From IMG/VR virus record IMGVR_UViG_2563366897_000006: DNA of 45,081 nt. One strand, 5' to 3'. A program made the position numbers. This DNA comes from a virus. Its lineage: Duplodnaviria > Heunggongvirae > Uroviricota > Caudoviricetes. Position 1 is the first letter of the stretch. Each line of letters begins with the position of its first letter. Positions 33,001 to 36,000 of the stretch are shown here, one piece after another.

Positions 33001-36000
33001 CCCGTGGTGAATTGGGTCGAGTGGAGGGTGAAACAGAATTCCGAACTGCATACCAGAATGCCATCGGGATTAATCAACATACTGAATACCAGGCTGAAAC
33101 CGGAAAGTTAATTATAGACAACCTTTTACAAGAGGTTATTGATTACGCGAAAGAAAAATATATCAGCGGAGGAATTAACTGATGGCTAATTTATCCCCTG
33201 TATCTGTTGTGCACGAAAAAGTGCAGATCGTTATGACAATTGAAAATGGCCAGGTAACAGATGTCTGCAAAGTCCGCGATGGAGAGCTGATTGCCAGCAT
33301 GGATACATTCATATGGCTGGCAGAAAGAGCGGGGTATCAGATAACAGCACCTGCTCAGGAGGAAACCAGTGACATTAACAGCAACGCGAATTCCTGAGTG
33401 GGTCCACCAGCAGGCGTTGCTGGTCCTGCGGCGGTACAGATGCCGACGTATATTCCCGCATCGGATACAGCGCAACGGATATCTCAGTCTGAAGGTTAAC
33501 CGTCGCTGGCGGCTGTTATCGAAAGACGACGGCCGGAACTGGGAAATAATGAGTCATGAACGTTATTCGGGAGAAATAAAGAAATGATCGACAACCGCAC
33601 CGCCAGCGCCATTGACCAGGCATTACAGAAACATGATACACCCGTCGGCCCGTTATTTTTTGTAACACATCACGGAAGAACAAAAAAATGCCTCACTCGA
33701 AAAACGGCAATTCGTTACCTGGCATTCTTTATGACCACCCGCGCTTTTGAACGTTCAGGATTCCGACAACGCCATCCTGACAAGCGTTTTATCTTCAACG
33801 GGAATGAAATATGGAAACGTGGAGAATCAACCACAGAGTACACCCGCGCACACCAGCGAACAATCAGACGACTGCGCAGACTCATCGCCAGGAAACAGTA
33901 TACAGAAAAATGGTTCAGAAAATATGACACATGGAGCGCCGGATATTACGAACTGATGGCAACAAAACCATTCTGACGTAAACGAAATTAACCATGACGC
34001 AATTAAATAAGGCAAGCTGAATACAGCAGGAGGACCATGAACATTTATTTCAGAATAGTTATATCACTGGCAATTATCGCATGTATTTACGGATTGCTCG
34101 TCCCGTTTCTGATATCAATGAAGGATACGGTAGCGGTGATTTCTGGCTTTGCACTGACGTTTCTAACCCCGCCATGTATTTATACCATTTATAAGGGGCT
34201 TTCTTTCACTAAGGATAAAAGATGAAAAAAATTATTTTTTCTTTAGCCATTGTTCTGCCTGCCATTGGCCTTGTCGGTTGTGATCGTGTTGAGCCTGGTA
34301 ATGTGGGCATCAAAGTCAACAAACTTGGCGACGACAAAGGCGTCGGTGAAGTGGTCGGTGTTGGTCGCTACTGGACAGGCTGGAACACTGAAGTTTATAT
34401 CTTCCCGACCTTTAAGCAGATGAAGACCTACGATGATCCATTCAGTTTCCAGATGAGCGATGGAACAACCATTGGTTACCACATCGGAGTAGCCTACAAG
34501 GTTGATCCATCCAAAGTTACCACAGTCTTTCAGACCTACCGCAAAGGCGTGGACGACATTACCGACACCGACCTGCGCCAGAAGATAGCCGACGCACTCA
34601 ACCGACTGGCCAGCAAAATGACCACCGACAAATTTATCGACGGCGGCAAGTCTGAGCTGCTGGATGCAGCTCTTAAAGACATTCAGGAAGAAATGACGCC
34701 CATCGGTATTCAGGTAATAAGCCTCTCATATGTGGGTAAGCCGGAGTACCCGCCTACTGTTATCGACAGCATTAATGCCAAAGTCACGGCGAACCAGAAA
34801 ACTCTGCAACGCGAGCAGGAAGTAAAACAGCGCGAAGCGGAAGCCAACATGTTGCGCGCGGAAGCTGCCGGACAGGCTGATGCGATTCGCACAAAAGCCC
34901 AGGCTGAAGCCGATGCTATTCGTTTACGCGGTGAAGCTCTGCGTCAGAACCCCGGTGTTATGGAGCTGGAAGCCATCAATAAATGGAACGGCACGCTGCC
35001 GCAATACATGACCAGCGGTGCCAATACACCATTTATCCAGGTTAAATAACTTAATATGCCCGGCAGGCCGTCGGGCTAAGGGAAAAGCAGATAAACACTC
35101 ATAATACTCAACCGCAAATAATGAACTATGACCCAAATCTGACGTCATGCGGACGCATGGCGAAACAAACCGTTCGATTAACTTTCGGGCAATGGGAATA
35201 CCGCGAAACATTCGAAGTCACTGTCGGTGGCAACCTGACCGGACTCGATGTTATCAGTTGCGCTATTGAAAGCCTGTACGCAACGCTGCCTTATGAAGAA
35301 GTCGAGGATGAGCGTACAGGGGAAACAGATATCATGGCCACCATTAATATTGGCGAACTGACATGCCAGGATGAAGACCTGTCCGGAGAGCTCTGGCTTG
35401 CCGGGATGCTTATCTCAGCAGAAATTATCAGTATTGAACCCGCTACAAACATACGGCTCTGAAGTTCTCACTATTCAGAGAGCAGGAGAAAAAATGTTCG
35501 CTTTGATTAATCAGGGACAACTGTATACCGACAGTGCCGGTTACCCGGTAATAATTATTCGCTGCATAAACAACACTGTGTTGTACAGAAGAATTGATGG
35601 GCGAACACAGTCAGTAAAAATAAACGATTTCAATGAACTGTTTGAACGGATTGATCACCAGGAATACCGACAAATTCTGGCAGAAACAGAGCAGGAGGCT
35701 CATCTGAAAAAATTACGGGCCATGAAAAGGAAGTAAAGAATGAATAAAGCGTTTGAGCTATGGGTGCGCCAGCGTTACGGCAATCGCTATGACCTGACGC
35801 GAGATGTTGACGGCTTCTACTGTCGTGAAATTGTGAAACGAATGTTTGAAGTGTGGTGCCACTGCCGTGGGCTGAGTGTTGTGTGAGGTAATACATGGGC
35901 AATGTGATTCAACTGGCTCCCAATGAATGGGTTTGTGAAAGCGTTCTTATCGCAATTACCGGGCTCAAACCAGGCACAATTCTTCGGGCCCGGAAAGAAT

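Follow-up and report, generated by a model that had tools for sequence, protein, structure and literature searches.

SPFH proteins (prohibitins, stomatins, flotillins and HflK/C) are universal membrane organisers, and both the contents which they enclose and the way in which partners steer them are under active structural study. The SPFH domains of QmcA and of the stomatins face the cytoplasm. Prohibitin and HflK, according to the parts of the literature consulted, face the intermembrane space or the periplasm and hold AAA proteases (PMC12048511; PMC2636767). In the available passages of a 497-genome survey SPFH1, 2 and 5 were the sole groups with reported NfeD partners, SPFH3, 4 and 6-12 having none, and SPFH4 was predicted to face the periplasm without an NfeD partner; for SPFH4 the same passages mention no anchoring as a lipoprotein and no small, conserved partner of the hairpin type (PMC2636767). 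For the SPFH proteins and pairs of phages, several of which are annotated as 'prohibitin family protein', the literature searched contained annotations and speculation only and no experimental function. Here we compare with these systems two adjoining genes, coding for a small two-helix membrane protein and for an SPFH (Band_7) lipoprotein, in the virus record IMGVR_UViG_2563366897_000006 (IMG/VR), whose 45,081 nucleotides (the window in the following) represent a phiP27-like prophage.

From the gene structure, the family, the lipobox, and the conservation and fusion of the partner, all of which were observed directly, we conclude with moderate confidence that the pair forms a two-component inner-membrane scaffold, in which a periplasm-facing SPFH lipoprotein would build a ring or cage and a co-translated hairpin protein would serve as its co-subunit. 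The module is an old cellular one, which is carried by many phages and probably expressed early by them. The two genes are arranged as follows.

34028..34033, + strand: Shine-Dalgarno-like AGGAGG, 3 nt 5' of the ATG of the small open reading frame (ORF) (direct sequence reading)
34037..34225, + strand: small partner gene, 62 aa (ORF list, hydropathy)
34211..34215, + strand: Shine-Dalgarno-like AAGGA within the small ORF, 6 nt 5' of the SPFH ATG (direct sequence reading)
34222..34225, + strand: ATGA stop/start overlap (TGA of the small ORF at 34223-34225, ATG of the SPFH gene at 34222-34224)
34222..35049, + strand: SPFH (Band_7) lipoprotein gene, 275 aa (Pfam, PHROG)

The ATGA overlap, which points to translational coupling of the small ORF and the SPFH gene, is also present in the N4-like phage KpCHEMY26. 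A first-pass annotation of this DNA had proposed a 62-aa two-helix membrane protein, whose stop overlaps the next ATG, followed by a 275-aa lipoprotein with a band-7 core and an Ala/Glu/Gln-rich coiled-coil tail, and both ORFs were recovered at the positions given there. The lipoprotein is borne out by its lipobox and by a Pfam search, which had been named beforehand as the test on which the SPFH assignment might fail and which returned a significant match to Band_7 (PF01145) over residues 22-208 (E 2.9e-31; 109 bits compared to a cut-off of 23.6; profile positions 2-176 of 176), and the tail by its composition and by one predicted helix. The protein is divided into the following parts.

34222..34284, + strand: signal peptide, residues 1-19, and lipobox L17-V18-G19-C20, with Asp21 at position +2 (sequence)
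34285..34845, + strand: SPFH/Band_7 core, residues 22-208 (Pfam boundaries; beta/alpha core of the AlphaFold2 model, pLDDT 73-93)
34753..34947, + strand: long Ala/Glu/Gln/Arg-rich helix, residues 178-242 (model), equivalent of the wall-forming coiled coil in SPFH cages
34984..35001, + strand: C-terminal motif W255-N-G257-T-L-P260, conserved, disordered in the monomer model

In the family searches PHROG 200 ('lipoprotein') matched the 275-aa protein with E 9e-115, and L05 of phiP27 is 97.8% identical to it. The best match of the single sequence in the PDB was HflK (E 2e-4), and a profile of 42 family sequences retrieved prohibitin-1 (2.7e-9), HflK (5.6e-8) and QmcA (4.3e-7). The AlphaFold2 monomer (mean pLDDT 75) consists of the SPFH core and a single continuous helix from residue 178 to 242, and pLDDT falls below 50 at residues 245-275, within which, among 42 diverse homologues, W255 and G257 are invariant and P260 is at least 90% conserved. 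Foldseek gave alignments spanning the whole model for prohibitin, HflK/C, erlin, stomatin, flotillin and QmcA-YbbJ (8z5g) at E values of 1e-13 to 1e-7, with a probability of 1.00 over 240-310 aligned columns for these cage-forming SPFH structures; many viral Band-7 proteins were found among the matches as well. The NCBIfam models for HflK (TIGR01933; 23.6 bits, cut-off 159.4) and HflC (TIGR01932; 26.2 bits, cut-off 134.4) were both missed. Judged from these comparisons the nearest relatives of the protein are prohibitin and HflK, which are exposed to the periplasm or, in mitochondria, to the equivalent space, and as an exported lipoprotein nearest to these it does not belong to the cytoplasm-facing stomatin/flotillin/YqfA type (SPFH1/2/5). 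The label 'serine protease', which recurs for this gene in databases, was not supported by the domain and fold searches made.

With prohibitin and HflK as the nearest solved relatives, and with HflC and HflK as the weak NCBIfam matches, the pair could be a mimic or modulator of HflK/C-FtsH, whose periplasmic cage would bind FtsH, or a different membrane protease, or push it out of place and thereby bias the choice between lysis and lysogeny, or excision, by stabilising phage proteins which FtsH degrades (CII, CIII and Xis in lambda). The gene indeed lies near xis/int, and for the Burkholderia phage CSP3 the same idea, a role in lysogeny through HflB/FtsH, was put forward without data (PMC10269572). 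However, the HflK and HflC scores are far under the cut-offs (26 vs 134 bits), the chromosomal copies of the module show no link to ftsH, and the pair also occurs in strictly virulent phages, which take no lysogeny decision; we regard this explanation as rather unlikely.

The N-terminus of the SPFH protein, MKKIIFSLAIVLPAIGLVGC-DR, comprises a signal peptide and a lipobox, and its stretch MKKIIFSLAIVLPAIG-LVGC conforms to the pattern [LVI][ASTVI][GAS]C. Cys20 is invariant in the alignment of 42 diverse family sequences and is followed in the window by Asp21 and Arg22; among the close homologues with a scorable site, 99 of 104 have Asp at +2. Asp at this position is the Lol-avoidance signal in E. 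coli.

The 62-aa partner has two predicted transmembrane segments, the first strongly hydrophobic (about residues 4-27), with a Kyte-Doolittle mean over 19 residues that reaches 2.7, and the second less so (about residues 32-52). They are connected by the short polar turn S-M-K-D-T, and basic residues stand at both termini. By the positive-inside rule both ends of this hairpin are predicted to be cytoplasmic and the turn to lie at the periplasmic face.

34103..34129, + strand: turn motif P23-F-L-I-S27-M-K-D30-T31 of the small protein, predicted to face the periplasm (conservation)

Pro23 was found in all 52 sequences retrieved with a profile of the small protein, together with Leu25 (81%) and Ser/Asn27 (92%); positions 30 and 31 are mostly Ser/Asp and Asp/Thr, respectively, and Gly/Ala37 is conserved as well. 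In the 25-sequence alignment A6 Pro23 is again invariant and Ser27 at least 90% conserved, and all of the conserved residues are situated at or beside the predicted periplasmic turn. PHROG 1130 ('membrane protein') matched the small protein with E 3.6e-23, and no Pfam match was obtained at E up to 0.01.

In the first-pass annotation the pairing had been likened to the NfeD-SPFH operons, and the operon logic is similar, as the solved QmcA-YbbJ complex (PDB 8z5g) is an SPFH cage with a membrane partner. It is nevertheless hardly credible that the small protein is a minimal NfeD, since neither it nor nine diverse relatives or fused forms matched NfeD (PF01957) or any other Pfam model above cut-off, 62 residues are too short for an OB-fold domain, and the SPFH protein belongs to the periplasm-facing, prohibitin/HflK-like branch, for which the available passages of the 497-genome survey give no NfeD partner (PMC2636767). 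What is left of the likeness is a membrane partner in the same operon. Class II holins share the N-in/C-in two-helix topology predicted here, and the basic tail of the small protein resembles theirs too, so that the pair might also be read as a lysis-timing device in which the SPFH protein regulates the assembly of a holin/antiholin-like partner. In Kayvirus mbpS and mbpV lie between the endolysin and transglycosylase genes, and MbpV was likened to holins (PMC7150955). In the window, however, the pair adjoins no recognised lysis gene, the sole match to a holin model (Holin_SPP1, one sequence, E 0.055) is far under the cut-off, and chromosomal copies stand in non-phage contexts, which makes a function in lysis timing very improbable.

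The association of the two genes was followed in two sets of loci. The close viral loci have kept the small ORF without exception (80/80), in 64 cases with a 4-nt overlap, in 15 with a 20-nt overlap and in one abutting the SPFH gene. A diverse set of 80 loci was retrieved from a one-genome-per-species collection by SPFH homology alone (7-sequence alignment; 30-96% identity) and covered Enterobacterales, Leptospira, Sphingomonas, Bacteroidota, Acidobacteriota, cyanobacteria and candidate phyla. An ORF of 40-175 aa was counted as an adjacent partner when it had two or more hydrophobic segments and its end lay 20-110 nt 5' of the codon for the lipobox Cys. Thereby 52 loci were found to have an adjacent two-helix ORF and four an in-frame fusion, and 24 had neither, compared to a background rate of 7/397 (1.8%) for other large ORFs of the same loci. 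At three of these 24 loci the profile still detected a partner, in two cases about 770 bp upstream and in one as an adjacent, shorter ORF of 51 aa, and at another one a two-helix ORF lies 188 nt 5' of the Cys codon.

An iterated profile, which was seeded with the small protein of the window and run over all 3770 ORFs of 88 loci, converged on one match each at 52 loci, always on the strand of the SPFH gene and upstream of it, ranging from Enterobacterales to Leptospira, Sphingomonas, Bacteroidota and virulent phages; one gene intervenes between partner and SPFH gene in phage KB57 and two in Arefeen1. In a collection of 5.8 billion proteins the profile had 118 matches, none of them with a Pfam domain and all but three unnamed or called 'hypothetical protein', the exceptions being labelled 'glycosyltransferase family 4, partial', 'putative membrane protein' and, in UniRef, 'Lipoprotein'. 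Directly upstream of the SPFH genes of phiP27 (locus L001, about 4006-4194) and of the crAss-like phage cr128_1 (locus L169, about 1790-1990) the small ORF is present and unannotated. Evidently, the small protein is a genuine, ancient partner of the SPFH gene and not a chance ORF, and it represents an unnamed family of hairpin proteins, of which PHROG 1130 is a part. Two loci from Shigella flexneri and E. coli (L085 and L086, 1527-2501) carry about 770 bp inserted between the partner ORF and the SPFH gene, and the small ORF, having lost its original stop, is six codons longer there.

Fusions of 320-390 aa make up about 20 of the 150 best family representatives; in them the hairpin with the same P-x-L-x-S turn is followed by a signal-peptide-like helix, the lipobox Cys and the SPFH domain; one natural fusion (P0021) stands in a P1-type context. 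With both ends of the hairpin in the cytoplasm, the third helix of the fusions would place the SPFH domain on the periplasmic side of the inner membrane, in agreement with Asp+2 and with the kinship to prohibitin and HflK, and Asp+2 and the fusions together indicate an inner-membrane location. The Cys is kept in every fused form inspected, and lipoprotein processing could cut the fusions into the same two pieces.

These features also bear on the possibility that the protein is a surface or virulence lipoprotein of lysogenic conversion, which would arrive in the outer membrane or in vesicles and exert its effect on the animal host. A precedent is Pasteurella PM0222, an HflK/C-like protein encoded in a lambda-like prophage island, which is found in outer-membrane vesicles and activates TLR1/2 and whose deletion attenuates virulence (PMC9872710), and relatives of the window pair occur in Stx-converting phages. 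We consider this explanation improbable in view of the conserved Asp+2, the fusions to membrane helices and the occurrence of the pair in free-living bacteria and in virulent phages of environmental bacteria; PM0222 is moreover likened to the window protein by its description as HflK/C-like only. Furthermore, TLR2 activation is common to triacylated lipoproteins, any of which can bring it about.

DNA of the pair was found in 571 of 5426 complete E. coli genomes, i.e. about a tenth, at 425 chromosomal and 241 plasmid places, and according to tblastn a homologue is encoded in 784 of 50,697 phage records. The carriers include lambdoid Stx phages, the P2-like phage P88, and P1-like and SSU5-like phage-plasmids; virulent phages of the N4-like, Vequintavirinae, Kayvirus and crAss-like groups; and LUZ24-like Pseudomonas phages and haloviruses. 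P88 has the pair between cox and a replication gene. P1-like elements carry it between dmt and ban. The intact Pban/C1-operator region which precedes it there has the same sequence as in canonical P1, and this position places it in a repressor-controlled early operon. Canonical P1 carries there, on the opposite strand, upl (63 aa) and plp (a 125-aa lipoprotein) (locus L004, 11473-12042), and the hairpin-SPFH pair takes this place in P1 variants (locus L003, 3731-4775). An identity of the pair with Plp/Upl was considered and dismissed, as canonical P1 is absent among the matches listed; the analogy is at most one of position.

The DNA homology with phiP27 begins at position 34033 of the window, four bases before the small ORF, indicating that the two genes travel together there. 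When lambdoid, P2-like (P88, L002) and P1-like (L003) copies from E. coli were compared, a DNA similarity of 87-90% was restricted to about 34270-35016, i.e. to the mature SPFH protein, whose sequence is 93% identical to that of P88; the signal peptide and the small ORF are replaced between these loci, and the small partners are only about 16-25% identical. Very different hairpins thus accompany nearly identical SPFH cores; either a contact with the SPFH protein would rest on the few conserved residues of the turn, or the hairpin is a diversifying part which confers specificity. In a similar prophage of E. coli 14EC017 the SPFH gene is a frameshifted, internally deleted pseudogene beside an intact small ORF (locus L171, 1638-2153), from which we take it that the pair is dispensable for prophage maintenance.

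Taken together, the scaffold could work as follows. After export the lipoprotein would be lipidated at Cys20 and retained in the inner membrane by Asp+2 with its SPFH domain in the periplasm, where the long helix would drive assembly into a membrane-seated ring or cage, as in every full-length SPFH protein solved. The 62-aa hairpin, with both ends in the cytoplasm and its production coupled to that of the lipoprotein by the ATGA overlap, would place its turn (Pro23...Ser27...Asp30) at the periplasmic surface beside the SPFH domain. It would thereby supply the membrane-spanning co-subunit which a lipid-anchored SPFH protein otherwise lacks, being analogous, although not homologous, to the membrane part of NfeD or to the N-terminal helices of HflK/C. 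In the phiP27-like prophage the pair sits amid the accessory genes which separate the immunity region from xis/int, and the cage would enclose some part of the inner membrane, or a host complex therein, during phage development.

Several points weigh against such a scaffold. Its location in the inner membrane, its oligomeric state, the contact between the two proteins and their time of expression are what we infer. The alignment from which AlphaFold2 built the monomer was shallow (38 sequences, at least 76% identical), and the last 30 residues were left unmodelled. Asp+2 followed by Arg may retain a lipoprotein less strongly than Asp-Asp or Asp-Glu, and PM0222, a Pasteurella prophage protein described as HflK/C-like, was reported from outer-membrane vesicles. 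No partner could be recognised at about 19 of the 80 diverse loci, most of them from Cytophagales and other Bacteroidota, so that the SPFH protein can exist without one, and with partners of 16-25% identity beside SPFH cores of 87-93% any contact must rest on very few residues. Finally, read-through from the repressor promoter or Rho-dependent transcription may produce the pair in lysogens. A wider proposal, which we advance tentatively and with slightly less than even confidence, is that the hairpin founds a family, unrecognised so far and spread over several phyla, whose members are obligate co-subunits of prohibitin-like SPFH cages that are lipid-anchored and face the periplasm, as a functional counterpart of NfeD; that the fusions are cleaved at the lipobox into the same two pieces; and that phages of many kinds captured the module in order to close off an area of inner membrane in the infected host.

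In the window the pair is on the strand which runs from the repressor to xis/int, amid small genes of unassigned function.

30435..31166, + strand: cI-like repressor
35895..36131: excisionase (xis)
36187..37500: integrase (int)

In a consensus scan, neither a promoter-like site immediately 5' of 34037 nor a + strand terminator from 31166 to 35535 was detected. A hairpin at 35058-35076, behind the stop of the SPFH gene, was considered as a terminator and found unconvincing, as it has no U tract and a z score of -1.4 compared to shuffled sequences. The earlier placement of the pair in a lysogen-expressed region is not supported: no promoter-like site was seen close upstream and no convincing terminator downstream, and elsewhere the pair stands under the C1-controlled Pban, in the early operon of P88 and in virulent phages. 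By analogy with these relatives it is probably expressed with the early lytic genes.

Some further observations concern the surroundings. Two Ant/Rha-like regulator genes (28492-30174, - strand) stand back to back with the cI-like repressor, and no small Cro-like gene was identified in the immunity region of the window. An overlapping 72-aa ORF with a GTG start (33369-33587, + strand) is, by length and position, apparently the same as a 'ParE family toxin-like protein' of the RefSeq annotation of E. coli 14EC017 (locus L171, 970-1188). Downstream of the pair, the DUF5406 and DUF4222 ORFs (35121-35736, + strand) overlap by 92 nt as listed; the DUF4222 match begins only at residue 45, so that the true start is probably internal. 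Just past the tyrosine integrase, a serine recombinase (PHROG 95; 37979-39502, + strand) and a tape-measure-like protein (40448-42496, - strand) suggest a second phage-like element abutting the phiP27-like prophage.

In Leptospira, Sphingomonas and Xenorhabdus the pair is flanked by ordinary chromosomal genes (coding for an MFS transporter, FlhA, an ArsR-type regulator, a beta-lactamase-fold protein and an OmpA-family protein), whereas at other loci its neighbours are of phage type, AAA_24 and DUF2303 among them. In two Leptospira loci (L106, 3332-3802; L110, 3328-3801) a conserved ORF of 156-157 aa was noted a few bases 3' of the SPFH gene; it has no Pfam or PADLOC match and may be a third member of the operon.

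A function in superinfection exclusion, which the first-pass annotation had named as plausible, or in anti-phage defence, in which the pair, produced by the lysogen or soon after infection, would block adsorption or DNA injection of other phages in the manner of T4 Imm and Sp, has several features on its side. The pair is accessory, as the natural SPFH pseudogene in an otherwise similar prophage illustrates; it moves among lambdoid, P2-like, P1-like and SSU5-like elements and occurs in roughly a tenth of the complete E. coli genomes; and a strongly diversified partner beside a nearly constant SPFH core is what a component of an arms race would look like. Virulent phages encode exclusion proteins as well, so that the presence of the pair in such phages is no argument against this function. 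On the other hand, neither protein nor three neighbouring ORFs had a match in PADLOC-DB 2.0 (E up to 0.01), and among ten sampled bacterial neighbour genes one strong match (a RecF-like ATPase) and two weak ones were obtained, so that no defence-island pattern was seen in this sample. Furthermore, no SPFH protein was tied to phage defence or exclusion in the literature searched, the module stands among ordinary chromosomal genes in the three genera named above, and neither the promoter and terminator scan nor the P1-like context gave any sign of lysogenic expression. We therefore hold exclusion to be unlikely, and in particular the occurrence in virulent phages, in early operons and on chromosomes does not support an exclusion role expressed by the lysogen.

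Should the hairpin prove to be a true co-subunit, the prohibitin-like branch of bacteria would acquire a partner which was thought to be missing, and a small system would become available in which the use of an SPFH cage to a virus can be studied. For annotation it follows that the often-missed small ORF upstream (as in phiP27 and the crAss-like phage) should be called and that the label 'serine protease' is unsupported by the domain and fold searches made.

Among the known systems, the direct homologues are L05 of phiP27 and gp11/gp12 of P88, which has the pair in the same layout; they and PHROG 200/1130 bear only the labels 'lipoprotein', 'serine protease' and 'membrane protein', and, as in the first-pass annotation, we found no experimental role assigned to such a pair in phages in the literature searched. 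More distant is MbpS of Kayvirus, about 26% identical to the SPFH protein of the window and likewise preceded by an overlapping small membrane-protein gene, whose product, however, has one helix and was missed by the hairpin profile; MbpS and MbpV were described by sequence only (PMC7150955). QmcA-YbbJ, the cage of which was solved (8z5g), and the archaeal stomatin-NfeD pair PH1511/PH1510 also combine an SPFH scaffold and a membrane partner in one operon, but their partner is an OB-fold NfeD protein, sometimes with a ClpP-like protease, whereas the 62-aa hairpin has neither. Prohibitin 1/2 gave the best profile matches in the PDB, and the bacterial 'p-prohibitins' (SPFH4) are comparable by their description in the available passages of the survey (PMC2636767). 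HflK/HflC of E. coli (SPFH3 of Hinderhofer 2009), which form a cage around FtsH, are likewise periplasm-facing SPFH proteins of the inner membrane with a long wall helix and match the model over its full length; they are, however, a hetero-oligomer in which each subunit brings its own N-terminal transmembrane helix, whereas the window locus offers a simple, phage-carried version, found in many phage families, with one lipid-anchored SPFH protein and one separate hairpin of about 60 residues.

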